DNA of 64,000 bases from Tagaea sp. (GCA_965229215.1 OZ245864.1:134360-198359); one strand, 5' to 3'. Positions 33,434 through 50,512 are shown, numbered from the stretch's first letter. The notes: generated from the letters alone by a model not told the origin. Numbers and translations are program-made.

Positions 33434-33721
33434 ATGAGCGAACCGGACCGCAAGCCCGCGAACCGCCTGGCCGTCTTCGCGGTGGGCACCATGGGATGGG
33501 TGGTCGGCACGCTGTACGCGTGGCTGAACAGCCCGCTCTACCAGCATTGCCAGACGCTGTTTCCCGGCAGGTCGCTCGAATGCCGGCGTGCGCTCTATGG
33601 CTGGATCCCGCGCTTCGCGCTCTACTGGCCTTGGCCGATCCTCGGCGCGCTGGCCTTCGCCACCGTCTTCGTCCTCGCCATGCGGCTGCGCCGCGCGACG
33701 CGGGGAGATGGTGCCGGGTGA
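33434..33721 (+). CDS. hypothetical small membrane protein
   Basis: 95-aa ORF whose last codons and stop lie inside the tRNA-derived attL repeat. Confidence 0.35.
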   Translation: MSEPDRKPANRLAVFAVGTMGWVVGTLYAWLNSPLYQHCQTLFPGRSLECRRALYGWIPRFALYWPWPILGALAFATVFVLAMRLRRATRGDGAG

Positions 33722-33762
33722 GGGGATTGAACCCCCGACCTTCGGTTTACAAAACCGCTGCT
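33708..33762. repeat. attL: 55-bp direct repeat identical to the 3' part of tRNA-Thr (41754..41808)
   Basis: Exact 55-nt identity with the tRNA 3' region (anticodon arm through CCA) at the other end of the island. Confidence 0.85.
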
Positions 33763-33963
33763 ACCCCGTAGCAAGCTGGGGCAACCTGAGCGGATGGCCC
33801 CCAGCCTAGACACTCACAAAGCCTTTTATTTGCAGCATTGGATGCTATTTTCGAGCGATGGGGGGTTGCACGATGGTGCAACCTGAGCGACTCTTAAATC
33901 GTGGCTAGGGCGGTGGCTAGACCGGCTCGCCGACCCGCTAGCCACGGTTCGAGGGGTGCCCCG

Positions 33964-35388
33964 ATGAGCGGTTCAAAGCCTTTCCGCAACGACAAGGCGG
34001 CCAGCGATTGGATCAGGAAGACGCTGCGGAGCATGGCCTCGCCCCAGGTGCGCCATAACGACGGGCACGGTCTCTACCTGCGACTGTCGCTAGGTGGCAC
34101 GGCGACATGGACCCTCAAGCGCGCGGTCAACGGCAAGCCGCAGGAAAAGACCCTTGGGCACTTCCCCTCGGTCGGCGTGAACGCTGCCCGCGCGAAGGCG
34201 GCCGAATGGCGTGCGGCGATCGACGACGGCAAGGATCCGGCCAAGGACGAAGCGGAGGCACACGCGGCCGAGCTGGCAGCGCGGCAGGCCCGCGAAGAAT
34301 CCGAACGGCAGTTGAAGCTGCGGACGTTCAACGCACTGGCCGAGCGGTTCATGCGCGAACACGTACAGCGCAAGCTGCGTGCGTCCATGCATACGGCCTA
34401 TGGCAGCACCTTGGGTCTGTTGCCCGCGACCATCCCGTCACGTAGCAAGCTTGGGAAGCCTCGCCAGCGTCGTTGCTACGTCGCCGCATGGCGCAACAGG
34501 CCCATAAAGGACATCACGAGCGACGACGTCGACAACGTCTTGAACGCCATCTACACCGCGGCCGAAGCGAAGTTCCGAAAGCGTCATCCCGACTATCCGG
34601 CCGACAAGGAAGTACCTGCAGGCGTGGGCGCTGGCGGAAACCGGATACGGGTCTATCTGCACCGCTTTTTCGAGTGGTGCATCAAGGAACGCTGCATCGT
34701 CGTGAACCCAGTTATGCAGACGTCGCCGAAGGCCGCGGAGCGCAAGCTCGACCGTGTCTTGACCGACGCCGAACTGGTCGAAGTCTGGAACGCGATCGAC
34801 GCGAAAGGCGGCCAGTTTAAGACCGTCTTGAAGGTCATGGCGTACACCGGCCAGCGTGAAAACGAGGTCGCGGGCATGCGTCGGTCGGAGTTGACCTTGG
34901 ACGGGCCGGAGCCGTTGTGGTCCATGCCGCCGTCCCGTACGAAGAAAGACCGCGCGCACAACGTCCCGCTGGCGCCGCAAGTCGTCGACCTGTTGCGCGC
35001 CGTCCCGCCGCTCGAGGAAAGCGACCTCGTATTCACGACGACGGGCAAGACGCCCCTGTCTGGGTGGTCGAAGCTGAAAGCGCGTATAGACGCCCAGATT
35101 GCGCGGGCACGCCGGGCGGCAGGGATAGAGGCCGACATGCCGGCTTGGCGCTTCCATGACCTTCGCAGGACCGCCCGCACGGCCTTCGCGCGTGCTGGCG
35201 TCAAGCCAGAGGTCGCGCGCGCCATCGTGAACCACAAGGCCAAGGGTATGGACGCGATCTATGATCGCTTCGAGTACATGCCACAGCGTCGGGCGGCCCT
35301 GACGGACTGGGCGAACGAACTGGACGGCATCATCGCAGGGACGTCGCGGCATAACGTGGTGCAACTGCGGGCCGCTGGCGCGGCATGA
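33964..35388 (+). CDS. int: tyrosine-type site-specific integrase (P4-like, N-terminal arm-binding domain)
   Basis: Catalytic-domain residues in the HDLRRT and VNHKAKGMDAIYDR regions. Adjacent to a partial tRNA copy. Confidence 0.9.
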   Translation: MSGSKPFRNDKAASDWIRKTLRSMASPQVRHNDGHGLYLRLSLGGTATWTLKRAVNGKPQEKTLGHFPSVGVNAARAKAAEWRAAIDDGKDPAKDEAEAHAAELAARQAREESERQLKLRTFNALAERFMREHVQRKLRASMHTAYGSTLGLLPATIPSRSKLGKPRQRRCYVAAWRNRPIKDITSDDVDNVLNAIYTAAEAKFRKRHPDYPADKEVPAGVGAGGNRIRVYLHRFFEWCIKERCIVVNPVMQTSPKAAERKLDRVLTDAELVEVWNAIDAKGGQFKTVLKVMAYTGQRENEVAGMRRSELTLDGPEPLWSMPPSRTKKDRAHNVPLAPQVVDLLRAVPPLEESDLVFTTTGKTPLSGWSKLKARIDAQIARARRAAGIEADMPAWRFHDLRRTARTAFARAGVKPEVARAIVNHKAKGMDAIYDRFEYMPQRRAALTDWANELDGIIAGTSRHNVVQLRAAGAA

Positions 35389-35570
35389 TGGCCTAGATAC
35401 ATTTTCCCTCGCGTACCCTTCACGCGCGGGGGGACAGTGCGTTGACACCCCGCGCGGGTTGCACCATTCTGCCGTGCATCGGGCCGCTGCCAATTTACCG
35501 ATAGCCAAAACGTCGAAACGCCGAAGGCCTCCCACGTCCGCAACTGCGGACCCAAGGTCGGAGTTTTGAC

Positions 35571-35828
35571 GTGTCCGAGAAGCTCAAATCATACGTGCGT
35601 TCCGAAGCCATCCTGCGCCGGCAGGGTTGGAGCCGCTGGACGCTGGCCCGCAAGATGAAGGCCAAAGAGCGCCCGTTCCCTGCGCCAGCGATGGAACTGG
35701 ATGGCGTTCGCTACTGGTCCGCAGTGGCCTATGCCGCCTGGCAGGACGAACAGGAAGCCGCATCGGCCCCCCGCCGGCGTACACCGCCGACCCGCACCCC
35801 ACATGCCGCCGACCAGGTGGCCGCCTAA
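35571..35828 (+). CDS. AlpA-family excisionase/transcriptional regulator
   Basis: 85-aa protein with a MerR-like HTH pattern (...ILRRQGWSRWTLARKMKAKERPFPAPAMELDGVRYWSAVAYAAW). GTG start with AAGGTCGGAG RBS. Lies between int and the primase gene. Confidence 0.65.
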   Translation: MSEKLKSYVRSEAILRRQGWSRWTLARKMKAKERPFPAPAMELDGVRYWSAVAYAAWQDEQEAASAPRRRTPPTRTPHAADQVAA

Positions 35829-35964
35829 AACGAAAGCCCCGACGTGGAGGGACACGCCGGGGCTCGCAAGTTCAGTGTCGAAGAGATAACCGCCCAAACA
35901 CTGTACTCGCGCGCCTGTCGGACTGCAACCTTTCCGCGTCGATCCAGACATGAGGATCGACACC

Positions 35965-37977
35965 ATGCCTAATTCACAATCGACACTCGACGCAGCCTTG
36001 GCACTCGCGCGCCGGGGCTTCTACGTCTTCCCCTGCGTCGTCAAAGGCGAAAGCAAAAAGCCGTCCATCAAGAACTGGAAGACGGAGGCCACGCGCGACG
36101 AGGCGAAGATCCGCACCTGGTGGAACGGTGAATTTGAGCGGTGCGCCGTCGGTATTGCGCACGGCAAATTTGGCGATGGATCTTGGTACCTCGTCACGTT
36201 CGACTGCGACAACAAGCACGGCAAGAACGGCGCCGATCGGCTGTTCGAGCTCGAGCTGGAACATGGCGACCTTCCGCGCACATACACCCAACGGACCCAA
36301 TCGGGCGGCCTTCACTATGTATTCAAGACGCGGCACCCGCTCGATGGGCCTGCGGACTTTCGCCCAGGACTCGACATTCGTGGCGCCCGGAACCTCATCT
36401 ACGCCGCCGGCAGCGTGTGGAACGGCAAGGCGTACACGGTCGAAGTCGACGCCGACGTGGCCGAGGCGCCTGAGTGGGTTGTCGACCTTGTCGGGGTGCG
36501 GTCTGTGGATGAGCCCCGCGTCGGGGCGCCGGAGGGGTTGATTCTCGATACGCCGGAGGCTGTCGCTGCTGCGGTCGCGTACATCAACACCGAGTCCCCG
36601 GAGGGGCAGAGCGGTAACCGCGACGCACCAGCGTTTAAGACGGCCGCAGGATGCAGGGATTTCGCGTTGACGCCTGAGAAGACGCTCGAGTTGATGGATG
36701 AGTATTGGAACGGTGTGCGATGCGTCCCGGCGATGGATCTTGACCGGTTGGAAGAGAAGGTCGCGAACGCCTACAAGAGCGCGAGCTCGACGATCGGAGC
36801 GAAGGCGCCCGCCGCGGCCGAGATGCAGCCCGCAGAAGCGGCCAAAACGACCGAGCCGCCGACGACGCAGGCGCCAGCGGCCGAGCCCTTCGCGATCGTC
36901 GGTTATGACGATCCGATCGACACGCCGGAACCCGAGCCTTTGATCGACGGCATATTGGACAAGGGCGCCGCCGTGTTGCTTTACGGCCTGCCGAAGACGG
37001 GCAAGTCGTTTGTGCTGTTCGAGATGGGGCGGTGCGTTGCCGGGAGCGTCAAATTCGCCGACCGGTACACCGAGCACGGCGCCGTCGTCATCTTCTGTTT
37101 CGAGGGACACCCTGGTCTATCGCGGCGCCGCAAGGCGATGCGGCTGCATCATGGCGACAAGAACTTGCCCCTGTTCATCGTGAAGGCGAGGGGCAGCATA
37201 TTGTCGAAGACAACTCAGGCCCAGATGGCTGCGACCGTGGACACTATCGAAGCCCGATGCGGGCAGCGCGTCGTGTTGGTCGGCGTCGACACCGTTACGG
37301 CTGCAGCACCGGGTGAAGACCAATACGCCCCCGGTCCCGCTGGCAACATCGTCAATGCTGCGAAAGCGGTATCGACCGCCCACGGTCGCACGCTGGTTCT
37401 GGTCCATCACGCAGCTAAGGACAAAGGTAACTCCCCCCTCGGATCGGTTGCCTTCCAAGGCAGCGTCGACGCCGTGCTCAAAGTCGGAAAGGATGGGTCG
37501 TGCGGAAAGCTCGACGGCGAAATGATGCGCGAGCACGCGGCCGGCCAGCCTCTCGAGTTTGAGCTGCGGACGGTCCACGTAGGCACGACGGCCCGAGGGG
37601 TCGCGGTGTCGAGTGCGGTGGCGCTATTCGGACCGGCGACCGATTTCACGAAGGCACTGACACCCAAAGAGGCCGAGGTCGAAGAACTGGTTTTGAAGCT
37701 GGCGGCCGATTGCGTACCCGGCGCGGACGACGAGCACGCCGACATCCGCCTTGCTCAAAAGGACGTCGAGGACGCCTTAGTGAACCGGTCGGACCCGCAC
37801 AAAGACGGGATTCTCCGCGTTAGAGCGGAAACGGCCGCAAGGAACGCGATTAAACATTGGAGGGAGAAACGCGCACAAAGTCACAATGTGCGCGTTGAGA
37901 AGCACGGAAAGGCCAATTTCCTGTGTTTTCACCCGATGGCGTTCATCCGCACAAACGCGGAGAAACGCGCACAATGA
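35965..37977 (+). CDS. bifunctional primase-polymerase (PrimPol N-terminal domain) fused to an AAA_25/RecA-like NTPase domain
   Basis: N-terminal YVFPC...K.P...W PrimPol motif. Walker A GLPKTGKS at about residue 340. GAGGA RBS before ATG 35965. Confidence 0.8.
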   Translation: MPNSQSTLDAALALARRGFYVFPCVVKGESKKPSIKNWKTEATRDEAKIRTWWNGEFERCAVGIAHGKFGDGSWYLVTFDCDNKHGKNGADRLFELELEHGDLPRTYTQRTQSGGLHYVFKTRHPLDGPADFRPGLDIRGARNLIYAAGSVWNGKAYTVEVDADVAEAPEWVVDLVGVRSVDEPRVGAPEGLILDTPEAVAAAVAYINTESPEGQSGNRDAPAFKTAAGCRDFALTPEKTLELMDEYWNGVRCVPAMDLDRLEEKVANAYKSASSTIGAKAPAAAEMQPAEAAKTTEPPTTQAPAAEPFAIVGYDDPIDTPEPEPLIDGILDKGAAVLLYGLPKTGKSFVLFEMGRCVAGSVKFADRYTEHGAVVIFCFEGHPGLSRRRKAMRLHHGDKNLPLFIVKARGSILSKTTQAQMAATVDTIEARCGQRVVLVGVDTVTAAAPGEDQYAPGPAGNIVNAAKAVSTAHGRTLVLVHHAAKDKGNSPLGSVAFQGSVDAVLKVGKDGSCGKLDGEMMREHAAGQPLEFELRTVHVGTTARGVAVSSAVALFGPATDFTKALTPKEAEVEELVLKLAADCVPGADDEHADIRLAQKDVEDALVNRSDPHKDGILRVRAETAARNAIKHWREKRAQSHNVRVEKHGKANFLCFHPMAFIRTNAEKRAQ

Positions 37978-38011
37978 TATTTGCCCCATCTAGCCGGGAT
38001 GCGCACACGCA

Positions 38012-38032
38012 ACACCCCCCTTTAGGGGGTGT
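38012..38032 (+). terminator. GC hairpin immediately after the primase stop (ACACCCCC-CTTTA-GGGGGTGT)
   Basis: 8-bp perfect stem with a 5-nt loop, 35 nt after the primase stop. No T-tract follows. Confidence 0.35.
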
Positions 38033-38149
38033 GCGCGTCGCCCGTAGGGGTTGAAAGATACCGGCCGGACCTTTGACGGCATGATCTTTCGAAAGGGTCC
38101 GAAGGCCCGTTGTGTACGGATGCCGGTTCACCCGTTGAGCGAGGCAGCG

Positions 38150-38323
38150 TTACCGCTGCGTCGGCCCTTTCTTCTCGAACTGTTCCAGCTTCGCGATGAG
38201 ATGACGGAGGCGGGAATTCGGGATGACGATCGCGTCGTCGCCCTGGCGCATGTGGATGATACCGATGTCGGCGTCGTTGCCGACTTGGACGGACGCCCAT
38301 CCCTTTCCGAGGTCCAATTGCAT
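38150..38323 (-). CDS. hypothetical small protein (57 aa)
   Basis: AAAGGGGA RBS 7 nt before ATG 38321-38323. Lies on the opposite strand to the island replication module. Confidence 0.4.
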   Translation of the reverse strand: MQLDLGKGWASVQVGNDADIGIIHMRQGDDAIVIPNSRLRHLIAKLEQFEKKGPTQR

Positions 38324-38807
38324 GTAGATCCCCTTTCCGTTTGGTTTATCGCAACAGCGGTGACGGGAATATCTGGCTTTCACAATCCTCAGTCAAGATT
38401 AAGTTATTGAAACTGTTGCGATTTTCACAACTTTTCTAGTTAAGCCATTAAAAGTATGTAGCAAATAATTCTGCACGCAGGGGGTGCGCTGGCCGTCAGT
38501 TGCCAACCGACTCGCGCGGACACGCGGGAAGAATCCGCGGCGATCGACGGCGACGACCGGCCGACGCACGACACATGACGGCGTCAGGATCCGGCGCACC
38601 GGATGGCGCATCCGCTGCTATCGGCTGCAAGCTGCCGCAACGGCACGCATCCGCCGTCCAGAGCGTGACGACGGCGAAATAGCCACCGCTGTAGCCACGA
38701 ACGCCGGGAAGATGCACCAGCGACGACCGCAGCCGGACCGGCGAGGCGTTGGGGTGTCGACCCCACCCCCGGCCTCGAGCTTGGGGGATTCCGTTTTCGA
38801 GGGGGTA

Positions 38808-38837
38808 CCCCGGGAAATCGGGCCGGGGGGTCTTTTT
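38808..38837 (+). terminator. intrinsic terminator-like hairpin (CCCCGG-loop-CCGGGG followed by TCTTTTT)
   Basis: 6-bp GC stem, 9-nt loop, then a T-tract. Located in a 570-bp region with no convincing ORF. Confidence 0.45.
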
Positions 38838-38951
38838 CATCCACCGGCCGCGGAAGCTACATGAACTGTCTGTCACTTTTGTTTCGATTAACTCAACACA
38901 AGGTTGATTCCAGCTAGCCATGCCACTATTTAGTGTGCGTAAATACTCGAC

Positions 38952-39170
38952 ATGACCAAACCGAACTTCGACTTCACAGGCGCATCGTGCCGCTGGCTCG
39001 AGGATGACCCCCACGACCCGAGCTGCCGGCAATGCCCCAAGGCGCCAGCGGCAGGCCGGCCGTACTGCCCCGAGCATCAGCACCGCGCATATCAGCCGAA
39101 CAGCGCACCCCGGAAACGTGAAGACCTGGACCCTTGGGCCAAGGTCGCCGTCGATGCGGAGGCCGCATGA
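38952..39170 (+). CDS. small Cys-rich (zinc-ribbon-like) hypothetical protein
   Basis: 72-aa protein with C-x9-C-x2-C-x10-C spacing. Its stop forms an ATGA overlap with the next ORF. Confidence 0.45.
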   Translation: MTKPNFDFTGASCRWLEDDPHDPSCRQCPKAPAAGRPYCPEHQHRAYQPNSAPRKREDLDPWAKVAVDAEAA

Positions 39171-39895
39171 GAATCGCGGACATCGTTTCTCGCTTCACGT
39201 CACCCCCGCCCAGCACGGTCGCCATCGCCCAGGCGTCGGGGCAGTCGACCATCAGACTCTCGCTCACAAGGAACTGGAAACTGGCCATGACGATCATCGC
39301 CGAGAAACTCGACACCGCGCACGCCAAGCGGACGGAGCTGGTAGAGGCGCGACGTGCGCTTCTGCTCGACGCCGTACAGGGCGAGCCGGGCGCCGACCCG
39401 AAACTTCGCAAGATCGAAAACGAGATTGCGGATCTGGACCGGAGCGTCGCCCAGCTCAGGGACGCGAATACTCTGGCTCGGGAACGCGACGACGCCGAAC
39501 GAGAAGCCGCCGCCGCGGCCGAATACAAGCGGCTCAAAGCGGAATGGGAACAGCGCAACGCCGACATGCGCCAACTCGCAGAACACGCCGACGCGCTGGC
39601 GAGCAAGGCCGCCGCCGCATTCATCGAACTGGCCGATAAAGCCGAAGCCCAGGCGCGATCGGCGCCCGTCGAGCTTTACGGCTTCCCGGCCGACAGGCCG
39701 CTGGGCCAAGGGCGCACCGCATCAGCCGTGCGGAACGTACTCGCACGGCACGGACTCGATTGGGCGCGTTCCGGCTTTTTCCGCTGGCCCGACCCGCCGC
39801 TCATCGTGGAAGTCATCGACGCCGGCATCACTTGGGCGAAGTACGAAGTCGATCGTATCGAATCTCGCAAGAAAGCGGCGAAGTCGGCCGCCTAA
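39167..39895 (+). CDS. hypothetical coiled-coil protein
   Basis: Translationally coupled downstream of the Cys-rich ORF. Long charged heptad-like segment (KRTELVEARRALL...AEYKRLKAEWEQRNADMRQLAEHADALASKAAAAF). Confidence 0.5.
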   Translation: MRIADIVSRFTSPPPSTVAIAQASGQSTIRLSLTRNWKLAMTIIAEKLDTAHAKRTELVEARRALLLDAVQGEPGADPKLRKIENEIADLDRSVAQLRDANTLARERDDAEREAAAAAEYKRLKAEWEQRNADMRQLAEHADALASKAAAAFIELADKAEAQARSAPVELYGFPADRPLGQGRTASAVRNVLARHGLDWARSGFFRWPDPPLIVEVIDAGITWAKYEVDRIESRKKAAKSAA

Positions 39896-39916
39896 CCCGA
39901 AAGGAACAGCCCCCAC

Positions 39917-40105
39917 ATGACCACCAAGTATTTCGGACTGGATGTCGGTTTCGATGCAGCGCAGCCGATAACCGCGGCAGGGTCGACGACCAGCAAAGTC
40001 GTCGAGCTTTCTCTAACAACGGATACGTTGACGCGCGCCGATGCCGTCAACGCCGTCGAGCGCATCCGGCTTCATCTTTCAAATTGTTCATGGCCTCCGG
40101 CTTGA
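39917..40105 (+). CDS. hypothetical small protein
   Basis: AAAGGAA RBS before ATG 39917. Located in the island cargo operon. Confidence 0.35.
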   Translation: MTTKYFGLDVGFDAAQPITAAGSTTSKVVELSLTTDTLTRADAVNAVERIRLHLSNCSWPPA

Positions 40106-40106
40106 C

Positions 40107-40334
40107 ATGAGCGGATCCAACAAAGCCATCACGGAACGCGCCCGCCTGGTCGGCGCCCTTGGCGAGGTGCGCGGCATGTTGCTGCGCGAGCTGACCGAGA
40201 TGCGCCGCGAGTTGAAGGACAAGACGGAAGCGTTGCGGACCACGACGGCCCGGCTCGAGTACGTCCGCCGGCAAGTGGCCTTCCAGCGCGCACGACGCGA
40301 TCGGATCATGGGAAAGAAGCGGGGCCCGGCGTGA
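40107..40334 (+). CDS. hypothetical small coiled-coil protein
   Basis: Starts 1 nt after the previous stop. Charged helical sequence. Confidence 0.4.
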   Translation: MSGSNKAITERARLVGALGEVRGMLLRELTEMRRELKDKTEALRTTTARLEYVRRQVAFQRARRDRIMGKKRGPA

Positions 40335-40743
40335 ACCGAGCCCCGCCCTACTCGAGCCTATTTCAAGGCCCAGATCAAAATGGCGATCGCGCTGATGATC
40401 GCCGCCGGATCGATCCGAAATTCCAGCTTGGTTTTGCGAGCCATGGGTGTGGCTCCTTTTGTCCGAGAGTCCAAACCAAATTCGCGGTTTGGAACCACAA
40501 ATCCCGCTGCGGGGTTGATGCCTTGGCGGGGTTTGCCCCAGATGTGCCGAAGCGTGCGTTTGGTGCTGCGCTTGGCTTGCTTGGGACTGCGGATCGGCGA
40601 GCTTCGACTCTGCGTTTGTCTTCCCGTCGATCGGGAAGCTGGACGACTTCGCAAGCTGCTTACCTGATACCTAAATCTGACAGATTCGCTGCGAGCGCAA
40701 GAATTAAGAAGTGCCAACTCGCGCCACTGAAAGGAACGTCCCG

Positions 40744-41418
40744 ATGACCGATACACCGCCCACTACGGCCCCCGCCGACATCGGCCCCGCAACCGCGGCC
40801 ATGCTTCCGAACCTGACGCCAGACGCGGCGCGGGCGGAAATCGCTGCGTTGAAAGCCGGCGCGGAACCGGGATTCCTCGATGCGTACCTGGGCGGCGTCG
40901 GACACGAGGCGGCGCTGACGAGGATGAGCCACCTTCACAAGCTCGCCAGTGGCGAGGCCGCGGACACGGCGGCCCCTGCAAGCGCGACGCCGGGCCGCGA
41001 TGCCGCCGGCAGATTCACGGGCGACGCCAACGCGATCGACATCGCAGAATACAAGGACCTGAATCTTCGCCCCGCGGAAGGTTCCAGCATCGAGGATATG
41101 GCCGCCGCGAACATGGCGGCCCGTGAAACCGCGGCCGTGCTGGGCATCCCGCCCGACGAGGCGCGCGGCCACGTCGCATTGCTCGAGGAGTCCATCGCGC
41201 GCCGGGGCGGCAAGTCGATGGACGCGGGCGAGCTCGATACGATGGAGACGCATCTGCAGCGAGTTGCAGGCGCCGCCTATGGCGAAGTCGTCGCCGGCTT
41301 CAAGGATGCGATCGCGCGCGCCGGCAAAAACGGCGCCGGGCTGCGGAACGCGATCCTCGCCGCCGACCCGCCGATCGCAGCGATGATGATCGCGAACCTG
41401 GGCCGCAAGCGAGCTTGA
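40744..41418 (+). CDS. hypothetical protein (island cargo)
   Basis: AAAGGAA RBS before ATG 40744. 224 aa with no recognisable family. Confidence 0.5.
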   Translation: MTDTPPTTAPADIGPATAAMLPNLTPDAARAEIAALKAGAEPGFLDAYLGGVGHEAALTRMSHLHKLASGEAADTAAPASATPGRDAAGRFTGDANAIDIAEYKDLNLRPAEGSSIEDMAAANMAARETAAVLGIPPDEARGHVALLEESIARRGGKSMDAGELDTMETHLQRVAGAAYGEVVAGFKDAIARAGKNGAGLRNAILAADPPIAAMMIANLGRKRA

Positions 41419-41422
41419 ACCG

Positions 41423-41701
41423 ATGACCGACGCCCCGCTATCACGCGATGACATGCTCGACGGCGCCCGCGTGGCGGTGGCTCGTCGTATCGGCCGGCCG
41501 CCGGGTAGCCTCAACACCCGCACGAAGGACATCGCCGTCCGCGTGGCGAATCTGATGCAGAGCGGGCTCGACATGGTCGACGCCCTGGCCGTCGTGGCCG
41601 AGGACAAGACGGCATCGCTCGATCAGCGATTCGTCGCCTTGCGGCTACTGTTTGGTGCGATGGCCGGCCGGATCGTGCGGCCCGAGGGGCCGGGGGGCTA
41701 A
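41423..41701 (+). CDS. hypothetical small protein (island cargo)
   Basis: ATG 4 nt after the previous stop. Contains a RRIGRPPGSLN basic patch. Confidence 0.4.
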   Translation: MTDAPLSRDDMLDGARVAVARRIGRPPGSLNTRTKDIAVRVANLMQSGLDMVDALAVVAEDKTASLDQRFVALRLLFGAMAGRIVRPEGPGG

Positions 41702-41753
41702 TTCGTGGCTAGAGCCGTGGCTAAAGGCACGGTTTCAAAGCCAAATTGAAATT

Positions 41754-41808
41754 ATGGTGCCGGGTGAGGGGATTGAACCCCCGACCTTCGGTTTACAAAA
41801 CCGCTGCT
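41754..41808. repeat. attR: 55-bp repeat (3' part of the intact tRNA-Thr)
   Basis: Identical to 33708..33762. Confidence 0.85.
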
Positions 41809-41829
41809 CTACCGCTGAGCTAACCCGGC
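41755..41829 (-). tRNA. tRNA-Thr (anticodon UGU), CCA encoded
   Basis: Manual cloverleaf: acceptor GCCGGGT/ACCCGGC, D-arm GCTC-AGCGGTA-GAGC, anticodon loop TTTGTAA, T-arm GGGGG-TTCAATC-CCCTC, 3' CCA. Confidence 0.75.
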
Positions 41830-42428: not shown

Positions 42429-43136
42429 TCAGACGCAGGCGCCGAGCTCGCCGGCAGAAACTTCTTCCAGGCGATCCCGATCGAGGAATTCGATGCGATC
42501 CAAGGCAGGCAGCGCGATGAGTTTGTCGCGCTTGAGCTTGGTAAGGGTCCGCGAGACGGTCTCGACGGTCAGGCCCAGATAGTCGCCGATGTCGCTGCGC
42601 GTCATCGGGACGGAGACCTCATCTTGCGCATCGGGCTGCTGCTCGGCCATCAGCAGCAGGAAGCTCGCGACCTTCTCGGTTGCGGTCTTTCGGCCGAGGA
42701 GGAGCATCAGGTCCTGCGCGTAGCGGAGCTCGTCGGACGTGACGGCCCAGAGGCGCCGGGCAAGCCCGGGGACGCTGTCCACCAGCCGGTCGAACGAAGT
42801 ACGGGGGTATCGGCAGAGCGTGACGTCGGTGATCGCTTCTGCCGTATAGGCGTGGGTGCCGTCCGGTGCCAGGCCCAGAATATGCCCTTCGGTCGGGAAG
42901 CCCATGATCTGGCGGCGGCCATCGGAGAGAAGCCGGTAGAGGCGCAGGGTCCCGTGCACGACCTCGTAGATATAGTCGGAAGCATCCCCTTCGCTGAAAA
43001 TCGTTTCTCCGGCGACCTTGCGGTTCAGGGAGCTGATTTCCGCAAAGCGGCTGGCCGACTGATGTCCGAGGCCCCGGCACACGGCGAGAGAGCCGAAATC
43101 CAGTTTGGCGGCGCTTGAATTGGCTTGGACCTGCAT
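42429..43136 (-). CDS. fixK: Crp/Fnr-family regulator, FixK-like (no N-terminal Cys cluster)
   Basis: cNMP-binding fold plus C-terminal HTH (RSDIGDYLGLTVETVSRTLTKL). Located beside FixL-like and cco genes. Confidence 0.8.
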   Translation of the reverse strand: MQVQANSSAAKLDFGSLAVCRGLGHQSASRFAEISSLNRKVAGETIFSEGDASDYIYEVVHGTLRLYRLLSDGRRQIMGFPTEGHILGLAPDGTHAYTAEAITDVTLCRYPRTSFDRLVDSVPGLARRLWAVTSDELRYAQDLMLLLGRKTATEKVASFLLLMAEQQPDAQDEVSVPMTRSDIGDYLGLTVETVSRTLTKLKRDKLIALPALDRIEFLDRDRLEEVSAGELGACV

Positions 43137-43253
43137 TGCGCGTTCTCCCTTGGTATGCCCGTCCGGACTTCATCCGGCACAGACGACATTAGGCGCGCCA
43201 TTTCACGGGCCTATGTCGGGACATCGGGAAAACGGTCTCAATTGGCGACAGAG

Positions 43254-43269
43254 TGTGACGGTTTGTGAC
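43254..43269. promoter_or_regulatory. direct repeat TGTGAC-N4-TGTGAC in the fixK / response-regulator divergent intergenic region
   Basis: Two TGTGAC hexamers spaced 10 bp centre-to-centre, as expected for OmpR/PhoB-family sites. 34 bp upstream of the response-regulator ATG. Confidence 0.3.
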
Positions 43270-43302
43270 AGACTGCGGAGCCAGTTACCGGACCCGGACG
43301 CA

Positions 43303-44049
43303 ATGGCCAGCCAGTTTCATATCCTGATCGTCGACGACGATGCCCGTATCCGCACCATGTTGCGGCGCTATCTGACCGACGAAGGCTTCGCGGTCAGCGA
43401 AGCCCAAGATGGAGCTGGCGCGCGGGCGCTGATGGAGCGCGAAGCCGTCGATCTGATCCTGCTTGACCTGATGATGCCGGGCGAAGACGGGTTGTCGATC
43501 GCGCGGCACATACGGCAGGTCTCACAGATCCCGATCATCATGCTTACCGGAAAAGGGGACGTGATCGACCGCGTCGCTGGCTTGGAGGCCGGGGCCGACG
43601 ACTATGTCGCCAAGCCATTCCATCTGCGCGAAGTGCTTGCCCGTATCCGAACGGTGATGCGTCGTGGCGGTGGGCGGGAACCGGCTCCTGCCGTCGTTTC
43701 CCAGACCCCGGCGGGCGGGGCCTCGGCGGACGGTATCCGCCATTTCGAAGGATGGCGGCTCGATTTCCTGAAGCGCGAGCTCTCGCGTCGGAATGGCGAG
43801 ATTGTCGCCTTGACCAGCGGCGAATTCGACTTGCTCGGCGTTTTCGTCAGCCACCCCGGACGGGTTCTCAGTCGCGATCAGCTGATGGAACTTGCCAAGG
43901 GGCGCGAATGGGCGGCCTTCGATCGGGCGGTGGATACGCAGGTCGGCAGATTGAGAAAGAAGATCGAAGTCGACCCGGAGAATCCCAGCCTGATCAAGAC
44001 GGTGCGTGGTAGCGGCTATATCTTTGCGGCAACAGTGACGCCCGGCTAG
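43303..44049 (+). CDS. OmpR-family two-component response regulator
   Basis: REC domain (ILIVDDD...DLILLDLMMPGEDG) plus a winged-helix trans_reg_C domain. Confidence 0.85.
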   Translation: MASQFHILIVDDDARIRTMLRRYLTDEGFAVSEAQDGAGARALMEREAVDLILLDLMMPGEDGLSIARHIRQVSQIPIIMLTGKGDVIDRVAGLEAGADDYVAKPFHLREVLARIRTVMRRGGGREPAPAVVSQTPAGGASADGIRHFEGWRLDFLKRELSRRNGEIVALTSGEFDLLGVFVSHPGRVLSRDQLMELAKGREWAAFDRAVDTQVGRLRKKIEVDPENPSLIKTVRGSGYIFAATVTPG

Positions 44050-45674
44050 CCGCCGGATCGGGAATCGAGCAGTTCGCGGAGCTTTGCCTGCAGCTCCTTC
44101 AGGCCGTACGGCTTGCCGAGCCAGCCGGCCGCAGTCCGAAGAAGGCCGTCCTTGATCGCCGCCGGTTCGGCAAATCCGGACGTCAGGATGATCTTGAGAT
44201 TCGGCCAGCGCCGGCGAACTTCATGGGCGAGTTCGATGCCGCTGATGCCGCCGGCCATGATGACGTCGCTGAACAGAAGATCGATTTTCGGCTCGAGATC
44301 CAGAACGCGGAGCGCGGCAGGGCCGCTTTCCGCTTCCAGCACCGAATAGCCGAGTTCTTTCAGGCGCCGGATGGACACACGCCGGACGCGGGGATCGTCT
44401 TCCACGACCAGAATCGTCCGGCTGGAATTTTCGCGAAATGCCGGGCCTTTGGGCGCGCTTTGCTGGTTCGGGACGGGCGCCTGCTCGTGTACGGGAAGAA
44501 AAATCCGGATCGTCGTGCCGTGCCCCAGCTCGCTGACCAGCTGGATGTGGCCGCCTGACTGCTTGACGAACCCGTACACCATGCTGAGGCCGAGACCGCT
44601 GCCTTTGCCGGTTTCCTTTGTCGTGAAGAAGGGCTCGAATGCGCGCTGGCGCACTTCGGGAGTCATGCCCGTGCCGGTGTCGGTCACCGAGACGCTGGCG
44701 TATCGCCCCGGCCCGAGGCCGTCGATGGCGATCTGTCCCTTTTCGACATCCGTGCGGGCTGTTTCGATCGTCAGGCGGCCGCCATCGGGCATGGCATCGC
44801 GTGCGTTGATGGCGAGATTGAGCAGCACATTCTCGAACTGGCCCGGATCGGCCATGACCACGGGCGAATCGTCGGAAAATCTCGTTTCGATCGTCGCGTT
44901 CTGGCCGAGGGTCCGCCGAAGCAGGTCGACCATTCCGCCCGCCAGCGCACTCAGATCGATCGGCTTGGGGTTCAGCGGCTGTCGCCGTCCGAAGGCGAGC
45001 AGGCGATTGGCAAGCTGGGCGCCGAGCGCTGCCGCCTCCTGTGCTTCGTTCAGAAGTTCGAGATTCTGCGGGCTCTTCAGCCGCATCTGAAGCATCTCGA
45101 GATTGCCGGTGATCACGGTGAGGAGATTGTTGAAGTCGTGGGCGAGCCCTCCGGTGAGCTGGCCGATGGCTTCCATCTTCTGTGCCTGCCGCAGGTCCTG
45201 CTCGAGCTTGGCGCGCGCGGTCAGGTCGCGGATGAACCCGGTGAACAAGTGGGTGTCGGCAAGCTTCACTTCGCCGACGGCAAGCTCCATCGGAAAGATC
45301 GAGCCATCCTTGCGGCGCGCTTCCACCTCGCGGCCGATGCCGATGATGCGCTTTTGCCCGGTGCGCAGGTAGCGATCGAGATATCCGTCATGATTTTCCC
45401 GATGCGGCGTCGCCATCAGCATGCTGACGTTGTTGCCGATCACCTCGCCCGGCGAATAGCCGAAAAGACGAACTGCCGCGCTGCTGAAAGACTGGATGAT
45501 GCCGTGCCGGTCGATCGTGATGATGGCGTCCGGGGCCGTTTCCAGGACGGAGCGCAGGCGAGCCTCGCGCTCCTCGATTATCGCCAGCGTGCGCTTGGTC
45601 TGGTCGGATCGGTCGCCTTTTTTCGCCTGGCGCGGAGATGCCCGAGCCGCACGTTTCTTGATTGCCTTCTTCAT
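44046..45674 (-). CDS. fixL: FixL-like heme-PAS oxygen-sensor hybrid histidine kinase (PAS-HisKA-HATPase_c-REC)
   Basis: The PAS region closely resembles the FixL heme pocket (..NHDGYLDRYLRTGQKRIIGIGREVEARRKDGSIFPMELAVGE..FTGFIRDLT). H-box LAHDFNN and a C-terminal receiver. Confidence 0.85.
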   Translation of the reverse strand: MKKAIKKRAARASPRQAKKGDRSDQTKRTLAIIEEREARLRSVLETAPDAIITIDRHGIIQSFSSAAVRLFGYSPGEVIGNNVSMLMATPHRENHDGYLDRYLRTGQKRIIGIGREVEARRKDGSIFPMELAVGEVKLADTHLFTGFIRDLTARAKLEQDLRQAQKMEAIGQLTGGLAHDFNNLLTVITGNLEMLQMRLKSPQNLELLNEAQEAAALGAQLANRLLAFGRRQPLNPKPIDLSALAGGMVDLLRRTLGQNATIETRFSDDSPVVMADPGQFENVLLNLAINARDAMPDGGRLTIETARTDVEKGQIAIDGLGPGRYASVSVTDTGTGMTPEVRQRAFEPFFTTKETGKGSGLGLSMVYGFVKQSGGHIQLVSELGHGTTIRIFLPVHEQAPVPNQQSAPKGPAFRENSSRTILVVEDDPRVRRVSIRRLKELGYSVLEAESGPAALRVLDLEPKIDLLFSDVIMAGGISGIELAHEVRRRWPNLKIILTSGFAEPAAIKDGLLRTAAGWLGKPYGLKELQAKLRELLDSRSGG

Positions 45675-45751
45675 CGAGACCGGGCCCTCAACTGACAGGC
45701 ATCCAGTCTAGCCCGGCCGGCGGCCGGGAGCGACCGTCGTCGCGCCGGCCG

Positions 45752-45934
45752 CTACTCCGCGTCCGCGCCGTCGAAATGCCTTTTGATGAACTGGAAATCG
45801 AGAACGATCGAAAAGGCAAAGATTGCCAGACCGAAGAGATAGATGCCGGTATCGGCCGCGCGCGAAGCCATGAACAGGCCGACCAGGCCGAGTATTGTCG
45901 CGAAGACGGCGACGACAACTGTAGCGACGTTCAT
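45752..45934 (-). CDS. hypothetical 60-aa two-TM membrane protein, translationally coupled to ccoS
   Basis: ATG 45932-45934 overlaps the ccoS stop in an ATGA junction. Sequence MNVATVVVAVFATILGLVGLFMASRAADTGIYLFGLAIFAFSIVLDFQFIKRHFDGADAE. Confidence 0.45.
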   Translation of the reverse strand: MNVATVVVAVFATILGLVGLFMASRAADTGIYLFGLAIFAFSIVLDFQFIKRHFDGADAE

Positions 45935-46128
45935 TTCAGGCTCTCCTTTTCGGGGGTCTTGCGGGACTGGACGATTCCGGTTTTCGACGGTTCGTCGTCG
46001 AACAGGATGCGGCCGGCGGATCCGTCCAGGTCGCTGAACTGTCCGGTGTGCATCGCCCAGAGGAAGGCCGCGAGGCCGATTCCACCCAGAACGAGCGCTG
46101 CGGGAATGAGAATCAGAAGGCTGTTCAT
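45931..46128 (-). CDS. ccoS: cbb3-type cytochrome oxidase assembly protein CcoS/FixS
   Basis: 65-aa protein MNSLLILIPAALVLGGIGLAAFLWAMHTGQFSDLD... ATGA overlap with ccoI. Confidence 0.8.
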   Translation of the reverse strand: MNSLLILIPAALVLGGIGLAAFLWAMHTGQFSDLDGSAGRILFDDEPSKTGIVQSRKTPEKESLK

Positions 46129-48527
46129 TGCCGGTTCTCCCGACGCAGTGACAGGCGGAGCGCATTTCCGATCACGAGCAGGGACGAAGACGACATCGCG
46201 ATCGCGGCGATCAGCGGGGTCACCTTGCCTGCCATGGCGAGCGGTACGGCGCCGATATTGTAGAAGATCGCCAATGCAAGGTTCTGTCGCACAAGGCGTC
46301 CCGCGCGGCGCGCGACGTCGAGAACCTCCGCGATCGGTGCCAGCCGATTGCCCTGAAACACGATGTCCGCGGCGGTCTGGCTCACGTCTGCCGCCGTCGC
46401 GGGCGAGGCCGATACGTCGGCGGTCGCAAGCGCCGGCGCATCGTTCAGTCCGTCGCCGACCATCAGCGTCCGGCGGCCGGATGCACGAAGCGCGACGAGC
46501 CGTGCGGCTTTGTCGGCCGGGGTGCAGGCGGCCGTCCAATGCCCGATGCCGGCCTCGATTGCAGCCGGACCTACGGCGGCTGCGCGATCGCCGGACAGCA
46601 GTTCGATCTGCAGGCCACGCCCGCGCAGTGTACGGATGACGTCGCCCGCATCGGCGCGCAGGCGATCGGAGAACGCGAACCGGATTGCCGCACGATTCGG
46701 CATGACCAGCCACATTTCGGGTCCGGTGGTGGCGGATTCGATGGCGGGATCGATCCCGCAGAACGCGCGACTGCCCAACAGGACAGGTCCGGCGCCGGTC
46801 TCCATCGAGAGACCCATCCCCGGATGTTCGAGCACGTCCGCGGCGGGAGGCACCGGCGGGGCAGCCCTGACGAGGGCGCGCGAAAGCGGATGGCGGCTGG
46901 CCGCGGCAAGCGAAGCAGCCACCTGCAGATCCTCCGGCGTCCGCGACGGATCGGGAAGCAGTTCGAGGTGTCCTTCGGTAAGCGTCCCAGTCTTGTCGAA
47001 CACGACCGTGTCGACCGCTTCGAGCCGTTCCAGCGCGGTCGGCGATTTCAGGAGAATGCCTTGTCTGAGCAGCCGGCCACCGGCCACCACCTGAACGACC
47101 GGCACGGCGAGGGCGAGCGCACAAGGGCATGTAATGATGAGCACGGCCACCGCATTCAGGAGCGCCACCTGCCAACCGGCGTCTCCGAGCACGCTCCAGG
47201 CGATGAAGGTCAGCGCAGCGAGCGTATGGACGGCCGGTGCATAGGCGCGGGCGACCCGATCGGCCAGAACGACGAAGCGGCTGCGCCCCTGTTCAGCCGC
47301 CTCCATCAGACGCACGATCTCGGCAAGCAGCGTTCGGCTGCCGGTCGCCGTCACGACGATACGCAAGGGCGCGGACAGGTTCACCATCCCCGCAAATACG
47401 GCCGTGCCGACTGCCGCCGCCATCGGGGTCGACTCGCCGGTGACCAGGCTCGTATCCAGATCGGAGCGGCCGGACTCGATCTTTCCGTCGACACCGATCC
47501 GTTCGCCGGCCGCGACGATCACGTGGCTGCCGGGAGCGACCGCGTCGGCGCGCTGAGTGGCAATTCTGCCGTCGCCCTGCACGACGGAGACGGCACTCGG
47601 ACTCAGCGAAACAAGATACTCTGCAGCCGAATGCGCCCGTCCGCGGGACCTTGCATCGAGATATCGGCCGACCAGCAGGAAGAACAGGAGTGCCACCGCC
47701 GAATCGAAGTAGGCATGCTGGCCCGACGACACCGTCTCCCACAGGCTCATGGCGCCTGCCAGCAGGACTCCGATCGAAATGGGGACATCCATATTCGTCC
47801 GCCCGCCGCGAAGCGCCTGCAGGGCGGACCGGAAGAATGGCCGACCCGAATAGGCGATCGTCGGCAGGGCGACCAATGCGGAAACCCAGTGCATCAAGTC
47901 CCGGGTTGCCGGGCCCATGTCGCCGACTTGTCCGGCCCAGACCGACACCGAGAGAAGCATGATGTTGCTGGCGGCGAACCCGGCGACGGCCATCGCCTTC
48001 AGAAGTTCGTTTTCGTGTCGCGCCGTCGCGCTGGCGATCTTGGCGGGATCGTACGGCACAAGATGGAATCCCAGTGCCGCCGCGCGCGCGACATGGCGGT
48101 TTGCGTCGGCCGGCGATCCTTCCCAGCGCAGCAGGAGGCGTCGGGTAGACAGGTTAACGCGGCTGGAGACGACATCCTTGTCGTCGCTCAGGACGGTTTC
48201 AAGGAGCCAGACGCACGCGGCACAGGAGAGACCGTCGACAAGCAGATTGATCTCGTGCCGGCCGGAAGCGGCGCTCGTCGCATAACCCGAGCAGTCGTAG
48301 GTGCCTTCGGCATCCGGGCGCAAGGGCCGGGCGCCCGGCACGATACGCCGACGCCGATAGAACTGGTCGAGTCCGAGGCCCGTGACGATCGCATACGCGG
48401 CTTCGCATCCGCTGCAGCAGAACCCCCGCCCGCCGACGGCCGCCGCCGTACCGCAATGCAGGCAAGCCGGAGAATCGGCCGCTTCCGGTTTCGCGATGTG
48501 CTCCGTCCATGCCGCGACGTCGCTCAT
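46125..48527 (-). CDS. ccoI: copper-translocating P1B-type ATPase CcoI/FixI
   Basis: N-terminal Cys-rich region, CPC motif (ITCPCALALA), DKTGT phosphorylation site and GDGLND hinge. Start at MSDVAAW (ATG 48525-48527) overlaps the ccoH stop. Confidence 0.85.
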   Translation of the reverse strand: MSDVAAWTEHIAKPEAADSPACLHCGTAAAVGGRGFCCSGCEAAYAIVTGLGLDQFYRRRRIVPGARPLRPDAEGTYDCSGYATSAASGRHEINLLVDGLSCAACVWLLETVLSDDKDVVSSRVNLSTRRLLLRWEGSPADANRHVARAAALGFHLVPYDPAKIASATARHENELLKAMAVAGFAASNIMLLSVSVWAGQVGDMGPATRDLMHWVSALVALPTIAYSGRPFFRSALQALRGGRTNMDVPISIGVLLAGAMSLWETVSSGQHAYFDSAVALLFFLLVGRYLDARSRGRAHSAAEYLVSLSPSAVSVVQGDGRIATQRADAVAPGSHVIVAAGERIGVDGKIESGRSDLDTSLVTGESTPMAAAVGTAVFAGMVNLSAPLRIVVTATGSRTLLAEIVRLMEAAEQGRSRFVVLADRVARAYAPAVHTLAALTFIAWSVLGDAGWQVALLNAVAVLIITCPCALALAVPVVQVVAGGRLLRQGILLKSPTALERLEAVDTVVFDKTGTLTEGHLELLPDPSRTPEDLQVAASLAAASRHPLSRALVRAAPPVPPAADVLEHPGMGLSMETGAGPVLLGSRAFCGIDPAIESATTGPEMWLVMPNRAAIRFAFSDRLRADAGDVIRTLRGRGLQIELLSGDRAAAVGPAAIEAGIGHWTAACTPADKAARLVALRASGRRTLMVGDGLNDAPALATADVSASPATAADVSQTAADIVFQGNRLAPIAEVLDVARRAGRLVRQNLALAIFYNIGAVPLAMAGKVTPLIAAIAMSSSSLLVIGNALRLSLRRENRQ

Positions 48528-49006: not shown

Positions 49007-49009
49007 GGC

Positions 49010-50503: not shown

Positions 50504-50512
50504 CGCCGCACC

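Follow-up and report, generated by a model that had tools for sequence, protein, structure and literature searches.

A conserved six-gene block with a scaffold-like protein and a GcrA-type zinc finger in a putative phage satellite of Tagaea sp.

To our knowledge, the piracy of capsid assembly has been worked out in few satellites, by way of Sid in P4, CpmAB and Ccm in SaPIs, TcaP in PLE and Rcm in SaPIpT1028, and none of these has a T7-like podophage as its helper. The CpmB protein of SaPI1 possesses the coat-binding motif of the scaffold, competes with the scaffold and changes the size of the capsid (PMC5644958). A second described system that matters here is the sigma-70 cofactor GcrA. Its sigma-interacting domain (SID), formed by residues 105-152, is a CCCH zinc finger rich in loops (C118-X14-C133-X9-C143-X2-H146), which binds region 2 of sigma-70, and residues W120, F130, F132, Y142 and Y151 were essential in two-hybrid tests with sigma-70; even when its DNA-binding domain is lacking, GcrA stimulates promoter opening to a slight extent (PMC5887438). 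The GcrA-like proteins of phages, including gp222 of phiCbK, have been reported as whole-protein members of the GcrA family, with 41 residues conserved with GcrA of Caulobacter crescentus (PMC3556154). Here we describe an 8.05-kb island in a stretch of 64,000 nt of DNA from Tagaea sp. (hereafter the window; coordinates count from its first letter), which contains a block of six open reading frames (ORF1-ORF6; Table 1). We consider it reasonably probable that these six ORFs constitute a helper-exploitation module, combining morphogenesis and takeover functions, of an 8.05-kb satellite of T7-like podophages, and that this module would work in a CpmB-like manner.

ORF5 carries much of the evidence for this reading. 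Scans of ORF5 against Pfam and PHROG gave no match, and a word-indexed search gave five unnamed clusters. An exhaustive profile search of 1.84 billion representative sequences resulted in 87 matches, which fell into two groups. One consists of ~48 full-length relatives of 185-282 aa (clusters at 50% identity). The other consists of ~20 proteins of 250-340 aa, of which the extreme C-terminus aligned, to about residues 23-75 of ORF5 only. The proteins of this second group are phrog_3742 (E-values down to 1e-54), with weaker matches to phrog_458 and Pfam Phage_T7_Capsid, and tblastn equated them with the 'capsid assembly protein' found in HTVC010P-type pelagiphages and in phiVC8-like Vibrio phages. 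The gene order around the scaffold in those phages is portal, hypothetical protein, scaffold, major capsid, tail tubular A and tail tubular B. The gene of protein P0070, to which the terminal domain of ORF5 is up to 57% identical (tblastn), is located directly upstream of a Phage_capsid_2 gene. Alignment of residues 25-73 of ORF5 with the last 50 residues of the scaffold gave an hhalign probability of 98.9% (E = 3.3e-17, 49 columns), and the pattern common to both is ..P..A.AEI..L..D..F..AY.D...PGH..AV.RM..L.. In addition, the C-terminal domain of the ORF5 family aligned with the central 'WG.aYD' region of the scaffold (hhalign probability 86%, E = 5e-6). The scaffold's N-terminal ~120 residues are missing from ORF5. 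Since the two matched regions occur in reverse order, ORF5 appears to be a truncated scaffold with reversed domain order. AlphaFold gave an all-helical model of low confidence (pLDDT 61), in which residues 72-112 form a disordered linker.

ORF5 is not itself a member of the phrog_3742 scaffold family, because both the full-length match and the gene position fail. Thus, ORF5 and its close relatives do not match phrog_3742, which is touched by P0032 alone and over 38 residues, and ORF5 is flanked by ORF4 plus a variable slot on one side and by ORF6 plus a tRNA gene on the other, not by portal and major capsid protein genes. No match was obtained by tblastn against 50,697 phage genomes for ORF5, ORF6 or the centroid of the ORF5 family. 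Likewise, the ORF2 protein and the profiles of ORF5 and ORF6 found nothing in IMG/VR; a match to a degenerate motif in that collection was a false positive in a phage tail region.

Genes encoding ORF5-like proteins have recurrent neighbours, an observation based on ~10 loci. All contexts retrieved were either a small element bearing an integrase or a primase gene, or a short contig in which a gene for the terminase small subunit (TerS) follows the ORF5-like gene. The gene order is ORF5-like, TerS and ORF3-like at locus L005, and ORF3-like, ORF4-like, a 123-aa slot gene, ORF5-like, TerS and terminase large subunit (TerL) at locus L006. Locus L007 has an integrase gene, a helix-turn-helix (HTH) gene, replication genes, a minus-strand gene, a gene for a 73-aa CCCH protein overlapping an ORF2 homologue, a coiled-coil gene and the ORF5-like gene. 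The order integrase, AlpA, PrimPol/DUF5906, TerS and an HTH-like gene (these two on the minus strand, the latter as found on the P0023 contig), a ~207-aa coiled-coil gene and ORF5-like was observed for L008 and the P0023 contig. Loci L012 and L013 display integrase, HTH_17 and primase genes (this part was seen in L012 only), followed by TerS, a 223-aa gene, ORF5-like, a second TerS, TerL and a gp14-like internal virion protein, and L014 displays integrase, an Arc-like gene, xis, RepB-primase/AAA_25, ORF5-like, two small genes and att. In summary, L005, L006 and L012 have TerS coupled to the ORF5-like gene, followed by TerL in L006 and L012; TerS is located elsewhere in L008 and the P0023 contig, and L014 has none. 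The packaging genes and the gp14-like protein of these relatives point to T7-order podophages as the helpers.

The larger of these relatives (L012 5743-12667, L013 and L006 1674-2428) contain two TerS genes, TerL, a T7 gp14-like protein and large orphans behind the ORF5-like gene, and no capsid or portal gene was found in their available sequence. They may stand midway between minimalist satellites and those that form capsids.

At 65% GC, chance alone yields long ORFs, and the coding status of the six ORFs was therefore tested via GC content at third codon positions (GC3), codon-position pattern, orthologues and the pairwise ratio of nonsynonymous to synonymous substitutions (dN/dS). All six displayed a GC3 of 0.75-0.84 and the expected codon-position pattern, and comparison with three related islands (L001, L002 and L003) gave pairwise dN/dS values of 0.12-0.64, indicative of purifying selection on each of them. 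All six are present, in the same order, in these three islands, in which a 10-gene architecture is intact at 45-88% protein identity. The integrase of L003 is 37% identical, its target is tRNA-Asn and its primase is different, yet it retains the six-ORF block. Persistence of the block through exchanges of integrase and primase modules indicates that it forms the conserved core of an element family. This does not agree with the label 'cargo' given to it in an initial annotation of the sequence, which had named a lack of conservation as a block as evidence against its own proposal. Which islands are most alike depends on the gene: in ORF5 the window pairs with L002 and L001 with L003, in ORF2 L001 pairs with L002, and in ORF3 the window pairs with L003. 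Such incongruence argues for recombination among the islands. L002 and L003 are both present in assembly GCA_006364995.1, with different integrases and with tRNA-Thr and tRNA-Asn, respectively, as targets. These sequence comparisons indicate recombination between co-resident satellites.

Scans of the six ORFs and their orthologues against Pfam, PHROG, NCBIfam and PADLOC gave matches for ORF1 (GcrA) only, besides weak PHROG ones for ORF6. Matches to PADLOC-DB were at chance level (E >= 0.024), and no Pfam, PHROG or NCBIfam match to P4-like Sid, Psu, Delta/Ogr or alpha primase was obtained for any of the six ORFs.

The initial annotation had presented the block as a single translationally coupled operon of six plus-strand ORFs (72, 242, 62, 75, 224 and 92 aa) inside an island, with ATGA or 1-4-nt junctions and good ribosome-binding sites. 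The ORFs and their lengths were confirmed, as was the island, which is bounded by a perfect 55-nt repeat at a tRNA-Thr(UGU) gene. Three junctions are also as described, i.e. ORF1 and ORF2 overlap as ATGA, 1 nt separates ORF3 from ORF4 and 4 nt separate ORF5 from ORF6, but the ORF2/ORF3 and ORF4/ORF5 gaps measure 21 and 409 nt. Recognisable Shine-Dalgarno sequences precede ORF2 (GGAGG), ORF3 and ORF5 (AAAGGAA), whereas ORF1, ORF4 and ORF6 have none. The 409-nt gap includes a GC hairpin, which is likely a bidirectional terminator, and a sigma-70-like promoter. Together, the two gaps, the hairpin, an antisense ORF and the promoter-like site argue against a single operon and for a minimum of two transcription units, with three pairs of genes coupled. 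The layout of the block is therefore ORF1-4, a variable slot and ORF5-6.

The content of the slot varies between islands. An antisense peptide similar to that of the window is encoded in L001, and a plus-strand gene of 123 aa, which overlaps the start of ORF5, is found in L002 (9162-9533) and L003 (9159-9530). A homologue of this slot gene (1e-13) is located upstream of the ORF5-like gene in L006 (632-1006). The 28-aa antisense peptide of the window, whose ORF is followed by the hairpin, resembles either a toxin of type I or a small membrane peptide.

The second domain homology concerns ORF1. It matched Pfam GcrA (PF07750; E = 3.6e-5) at model positions 107-153 of 155, corresponding to GcrA residues 117-159, and also NCBIfam NF050816 (sig70cofacGcrA; E = 1.3e-5, 25.5 bits vs a cut-off of 280) and PDB 5yix_B, the GcrA-SID with sigma70 region 2 (E = 7e-4). 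The finger of ORF1 reads C13-X14-C28-X10-C39-X2-H42, its second spacer being one residue longer than that of GcrA. A four-Cys zinc ribbon had been proposed for this protein; ligands C13, C28, C39 and H42 are invariant in four islands and C25 is absent from the homologues, so that the finger is of the CCCH type. Residues W15, P20, Y38 (or W), A46 and Y47, the equivalents of W120, P125, Y142, A150 and Y151 of GcrA, are kept. The DNA-binding domain that GcrA has at its N-terminus (residues 1-45) and the linker are missing. Because it lacks the DNA-binding domain and does not reach the cut-off, ORF1 is not a GcrA, and on the basis of its alignments we regard it as a stand-alone SID-like module. 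We found no description of an isolated SID; the GcrA homologues of phages have been reported as members of the family over their whole length. The view that none of the six proteins belongs to a recognised family thus does not hold for ORF1 (GcrA C-terminal domain) and ORF5 (scaffolding-protein domains). The exact ORF1 sequence is missing from a collection of 15 billion proteins, and neither ORF1 nor ORF3 is called on L004, an ENA contig identical to the window, which is an annotation gap for small genes.

ORF2 gave a good AlphaFold model (pLDDT 83) consisting of a small HTH-like N-terminus, a long antiparallel helical hairpin of ~90 residues and two C-terminal helices, in agreement with the earlier description of two of the six proteins as strongly coiled-coil. 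No relative of ORF2 was found in Pfam, PHROG, PDB and Foldseek searches, and a word-indexed search among 5.8e9 proteins gave eight unnamed clusters only. ORF2 has no detectable similarity to the DNA-binding domain of GcrA or to any HTH family. The structure prediction and fold searches that had been recommended yielded a good model for ORF2 but generic helical hairpins as its only matches (PDB and BFVD; e.g. the SerRS arm and tape-measure fragments), and these decide neither for nor against a Sid-like or TcaP-like fold. In L007, a homologue of ORF2 (4e-54) again overlaps a CCCH gene by 4 nt. The 73-aa product of the latter (5382-5603) has the pattern C-x-W-x-D-P ... C ... C-x-x-H and a C-terminal DPF motif; its identification as a recognisable GcrA SID was not supported by hidden Markov model (HMM) or Pfam comparisons. 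Its position, its coupling and its motif make it a probable, strongly diverged analogue of ORF1. The C-terminal region of ORF2 has a weak likeness to a fragment in L005. The 207-aa gene of L008 was rejected as a relative of ORF2 on comparison.

ORF3 is 57-82% identical in L001-L003, and HMM matches to it in L006 (6e-15) and L005 (2e-9) adjoin the ORF5-like and TerS genes. It has no family matches in Pfam and PHROG scans, and the ORF3-like protein was unmatched by tblastn in the 50,697 phage genomes. ORF4 is 63-67% identical in L001-L003, has a homologue in L006 (9e-11) and otherwise weak matches to coiled-coil families only. Homologues of the other block genes thus stand alongside a scaffold-like gene in the wider family, firmly for ORF3 (L005 and L006) and ORF2 (L007), and weakly for ORF2 in L012 and L005.

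ORF6 is 88% identical in L001 and L002, with a dN/dS of 0.12-0.14. A word-indexed search gave five unnamed clusters only, and its weak PHROG matches are to families of unknown function. Its slot is the one in which TerS (Terminase_2 or PHROG terminase small subunit) follows the ORF5-like gene in L005, L006 and L012. That ORF6 would bind nucleic acid is a guess from its motif and its conservation.

We propose that the block works as two units. Unit B, consisting of ORF5 and ORF6 and having its own promoter, would act on virion assembly. ORF5 would be a truncated, domain-permuted descendant of the scaffold of a T7-like or HTVC010P-like podophage. The coat-binding domain of scaffolds is C-terminal in P22, 80alpha, T7 and SPP1. 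As ORF5 keeps the scaffold C-terminal domain, which is the coat-binding end in the scaffolds studied, it would bind the major capsid protein of the helper. By analogy with CpmB, it might then compete with the helper scaffold for coat, and either template a different shell or block the shell of the helper. ORF6 may act at the packaging step, where it would supply or alter packaging specificity. The island has no structural genes, and the scaffold-derived ORF5 together with the terminase genes of the relatives suggests redirection. Unit A, consisting of ORF1-ORF4, would serve both takeover and assembly. Within it, region 2 of the host sigma-70 would be the docking site of ORF1, which may there compete with GcrA or, together with the coupled ORF2, steer RNA polymerase. 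The promoter opening retained by GcrA without its DNA-binding domain implies that a free SID could either compete with GcrA or modulate RNA polymerase. The initial annotation had mentioned capsid-size redirection, helper interference and defence as possible functions. Domain homology and gene neighbourhood tie ORF5 to capsid assembly and packaging, while no defence model was matched. The homology to phage structural and regulatory proteins, which had been named as evidence against a novel module, exists at the level of domains only (a permuted scaffold fragment and an isolated GcrA finger), and hence sharpens the idea of a hijack module rather than refuting it.

Several points weigh against a helper-exploitation module. 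The coat-binding role is borrowed from other scaffold families, and the domain concerned is N-terminal in ORF5, not C-terminal. The low-confidence model of ORF5 retrieved nothing in a fold search of BFVD, and profile searches of PDB sequences gave nothing for ORF2, ORF5, ORF6 or the scaffold family, nor any structure of the phrog_3742 type. With the queries used, the ORF5-like family is absent from IMG/VR and from the INPHARED phage genomes, and the 64-kb window contains neither a helper scaffold gene nor a helper phage. The Pfam score of ORF1 (24.6 bits) is under the cut-off of 26.9, and the equivalents of F130 and F132, both of which were needed for two-hybrid binding of GcrA to sigma, are C or a gap and Q. 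ORF2-4 have no informative homologues and remain orphans; the link between the C-terminus of ORF2 and the 223-aa gene preceding the ORF5-like gene of L012 is weak (hhalign E = 3e-4, probability 39%). ORF6 was rejected as a TerS, as it had no Pfam, PHROG or NCBIfam match, no BLASTP alignment and an hhalign probability of 0.3%. For packaging into virions, IMG/VR gave no supporting match with the queries used. Finally, a genome of 8 kb is about one fifth of a podophage genome of 35-42 kb, which would call for very small capsids or for PICMI-like concatemers, both being equally possible.

A scaffold-derived protein could also serve purely as an assembly poison. ORF5 and ORF1 would in that case be defence or interference cargo that poisons capsid assembly or transcription of podophages on behalf of the host, and the element itself would stay unpackaged. 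The slot that separates ORF4 from ORF5 is variable, as are the defence hotspots of P4-like satellites, and an island without a terminase, belonging to a family absent from virome collections, would fit such a role. However, the block as a whole is a conserved core and not a variable hotspot, no PADLOC model was matched, and the coupling of TerS in three relatives and TerL in two points to packaging of the element itself. Interference and self-packaging are moreover compatible in known satellites. We therefore consider it unlikely that defence is what the block is for.

Much the same holds for a purely regulatory block, which we regard as improbable. According to this explanation, ORF1 and ORF2 would form a split GcrA-like activator, ORF2 providing HTH and dimerisation functions and ORF1 the sigma-70 contact, for genes of the island or of the host cell cycle; ORF3-6 would be unrelated small regulators and the island would be independent of phages. 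ORF1 indeed corresponds to the SID of GcrA, the N-terminus of ORF2 models as an HTH, GANTC sites touch both putative promoters, and the ATGA coupling between a CCCH gene and ORF2 is kept in L007, where the CCCH protein is beyond recognition by sequence. Yet ORF2 resembles neither the GcrA DNA-binding domain nor HTH families, and the weak ORF2-like match in L012 adjoins scaffold-like and terminase genes, with no SID-like gene noticed there in a search that was not exhaustive. The scaffold ancestry of ORF5 would be left unexplained. A prophage or integrative element in decay, with functionless small ORFs, as might be suspected from small orphan proteins with very few homologues and no structural genes, is disfavoured and seems highly improbable in view of the perfect 55-bp att repeats, the intact state of all genes, the dN/dS below 1 of the six ORFs, and the recurrence of the 10-gene architecture at 45-88% identity in three islands with signs of recombination.

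Returning to the helper-exploitation module, a more far-reaching and tentative proposal, to which we give somewhat less than even weight, is that the island belongs to an undescribed family of satellites of T7-order podophages, in which a circularly permuted scaffold (~48 clusters) hijacks the coat and to which the present lineage has added a GcrA SID coupled to a coiled-coil partner. If true, this would be the first mobile element using only the sigma-70-docking module of GcrA, be it as a competitor directed against GcrA or as a two-piece device for sigma appropriation. The ORF5-like family, which in the contexts retrieved appears confined to integrase/primase elements, may serve as a sequence marker for finding such satellites. 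The common 50-aa domain offers a testable mechanism of coat competition and would permit pairing of satellites and helpers by domain matching. The isolated SID of GcrA would be a natural separation-of-function variant of a sigma-70 cofactor. Should ORF1 bind sigma-70, satellite takeover would be linked to alphaproteobacterial cell-cycle circuitry, and ORF1 could be a tool to perturb GcrA-dependent transcription.

The remaining features of the island are collected in Table 1. The perfect 55-nt direct repeat encloses a region of 8.05 kb (33708-41808), in which a scan against Rfam found the tRNA and its att remnant and nothing else. Scans against Pfam, PHROG and PADLOC gave no capsid, portal, tail, terminase, relaxase or defence-model matches in the island. 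The generic architecture of satellites, i.e. integrase, excisionase or AlpA, primase-replicase and att repeats in an element of 5-20 kb, is present, and by its gene content the island has the anatomy of a small phage satellite. The GC3 of the island is 0.75-0.84, vs ~0.9 for host genes. The integrase, which probably starts at the ATG at ~33964, is 87-89% identical to those of L001 and L002. The excisionase assignment is weak, with no Pfam AlpA match. Of the families matched, phrog_66 is labelled 'excisionase and transcriptional regulator', and the position of the gene is common to all related islands. The divergent minus-strand ORF measures 57 aa, vs 77 aa for the longest frame, and is preceded by a promoter-like site at 38396-38368. 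The window copy is 25-29% identical to those of the related islands, residues G-K-x-W...Q-x-D...P being conserved, and its dN/dS is ~1. This frame may be non-coding, or may be a repressor-like gene that evolves fast. A non-coding region of ~570 nt separates it from ORF1.

Table 1. Coordinates of features of the island, in order along the window.
Feature	Position	Strand	Description
attL	33708..33762		displaced 55-nt copy of the tRNA-Thr 3' end, left border; sub-threshold Rfam tRNA match at 33712-33780
GTGGCTA-N5-GTGGCTA, copy 1	33901-33919	+	adjoins attL and the integrase start
Tyrosine integrase with arm-binding domain	33901..35388	+	Pfam Phage_integrase 1e-15, Arm-DNA-bind_3 9e-15; phrog_1 6e-51
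Excisionase or AlpA-position small DNA-binding protein, 85 aa	35571..35828	+	phrog_4745 3.5e-6; phrog_66 2.5e-4; sub-threshold NCBIfam Xis_Gifsy_1 2e-3
PrimPol primase fused to AAA_25 helicase-like ATPase	35950..37977	+	Pfam Prim-Pol 4e-29, AAA_25 4e-27
Divergent 57-aa ORF, candidate regulator	38150..38323	-	minus-strand gene of 57-64 aa at the equivalent place in L001-L004
GTGGCTA-N5-GTGGCTA, copy 3	38680..38698	-	inverted; lies in non-coding DNA upstream of the ORF1 operon
Putative ORF1-4 promoter, TTGATT-17-TATTTA	38903..38931	+	read by eye; absent from the consensus-scan output
ORF1, 72 aa	38952..39170	+	stand-alone GcrA-type SID (CCCH zinc finger) with conserved DPWAKV...EAA tail
ORF2, 242 aa	39167..39895	+	HTH-like N-terminal domain, antiparallel coiled-coil hairpin, C-terminal 'GLxWA...WP..PP' domain
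ORF3, 62 aa	39917..40105	+	orphan conserved across the wider element family
ORF4, 75 aa	40107..40334	+	helical coiled-coil-like orphan
GC hairpin over the ORF4 stop codon	40321..40344		read directly; terminator-like site on the minus strand at 40337-40323
Antisense 28-aa hydrophobic peptide in the variable slot	40358..40444	-	MARKTKLEFRIDPAAIISAIAILIWALK; strong AAGGAG Shine-Dalgarno sequence
Sigma-70-like promoter before ORF5, CTGACA-16-AAGAAT	40677..40704	+	consensus scan, 9/12 matches
ORF5, 224 aa	40744..41418	+	N-terminal residues ~25-73 match the podophage scaffold C-terminal domain; disordered linker; C-terminal helical domain similar to the scaffold central region
ORF6, 92 aa	41423..41701	+	orphan with invariant R-x-G-R-P-x-G-S-x-N motif
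GTGGCTA-N5-GTGGCTA, copy 2	41705-41723	+	adjoins attR
tRNA-Thr(UGU)	41755-41829	-	ARAGORN; Rfam 69 bits; 3' 55 nt = attR (41754-41808)

The paired motif GTGGCTA-N5-GTGGCTA has three matches in the window, vs 0.09 expected, and occurs at the identical three positions in L001 and L002; L007 is also listed among the loci of this observation. In L003, which has a different integrase and xis and targets tRNA-Asn, those three positions are occupied by GACACCTAG-N3-GACACCTAG, a repeat with a 12-bp period. The change of repeat type along with integrase and xis, at fixed positions, shows that the repeat co-varies with the recombination module. As one copy is located upstream of the ORF1 operon, the arm domain of the integrase or an Xis-like protein may also regulate the hijack genes, and the arrangement suggests that recombination proteins double as regulators. 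A GANTC site (CcrM methylation) touches both putative promoters, at or just after the -35. Enrichment of GANTC in the island was rejected, the density of 2.8 per kb vs 2.2 per kb in the window not being notable. Excision as a circle would place the integrase gene ~250-310 nt downstream of ORF6, in the same orientation (41702-41753 plus 33763-33963; the range reflects the choice of integrase start), and transcripts starting at the ORF5 promoter could then run across attP into that gene. To the right of the island, positions 42429-53762 contain genes for a CRP/FNR (FixK-like) regulator, a response regulator, a PAS histidine kinase, FixG/FixI-like proteins and cbb3 oxidase subunits, all but the CRP/FNR name coming from translations read by eye. 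By these names, the tRNA-Thr integration site adjoins a microaerobic respiration cluster. The genes resembling fixK/fixL and those for the cbb3 oxidase, along with the GcrA-type domain, suggest that the host is an alphaproteobacterium.

Comparison with known systems places ORF5 closest to CpmB, which acts with CpmA in SaPI1 (PMC5644958). Like CpmB, ORF5 is all-helical and has the segment with which the scaffold presumably contacts the coat, competition is proposed for it, and it is encoded in a satellite late or packaging operon, close to terS. The two proteins have no sequence similarity, however. CpmB has 72 aa and a 16-residue C-terminal helix-and-hook (RIIK) in common with its scaffold, whereas ORF5 has 224 aa and comprises a 50-aa domain plus a second scaffold region in permuted order, the common domain being N-terminal. 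The presumed helpers also differ, being podophages of Proteobacteria instead of staphylococcal siphophages. With the phrog_3742 scaffolds (HTVC010P-type and phiVC8-like, in the position of T7 gp9), ORF5 shares an alignable terminal domain and C-domain; unlike them it lacks the N-terminal ~120 residues, has the regions reversed and has no portal or capsid neighbours. ORF1, in turn, is like GcrA of C. crescentus (PF07750; PDB 5YIX and 7YE1) in its nearly equal CCCH spacing and in the W, P, aromatic-C, E-H and A-Y-Q-P positions, among which are several that contact sigma-70 region 2 in GcrA, and differs in having neither the N-terminal domain that binds m6A-DNA nor the linker and the basic C-terminal patch, and in its DPWAKV...EAA tail.

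At the level of the whole element, the island resembles P4-like satellites and Gram-negative PICIs in size class, integration in a tRNA gene, the order integrase-excisionase/AlpA-primase-helicase and a late operon of small genes. A zinc finger heading the late genes recalls Delta/Ogr of P4, and the helical ORF2 of ~240 aa recalls Sid. It differs from them in that homology to Sid, Psu, Delta, Rpp, Ppi and TerS is absent, the finger of ORF1 is of the GcrA type and not of the Ogr/Delta type, and the scaffold homology points to podophages as helpers instead of P2-like or lambdoid phages. With PICMIs, the Vibrionaceae satellites of virulent phages (PMC10803314), it has in common a size of ~6-8 kb, a core of integrase, AlpA and primase, and possibly the packaging of concatemers. 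PICMIs have been described without genes for capsid remodelling or redirection of packaging, whereas ~2.7 kb is devoted here to a six-gene module that includes a scaffold derivative. Thus, to judge from its gene content, the element is neither P4-like nor a PICMI, and fits the generic definition of a satellite.

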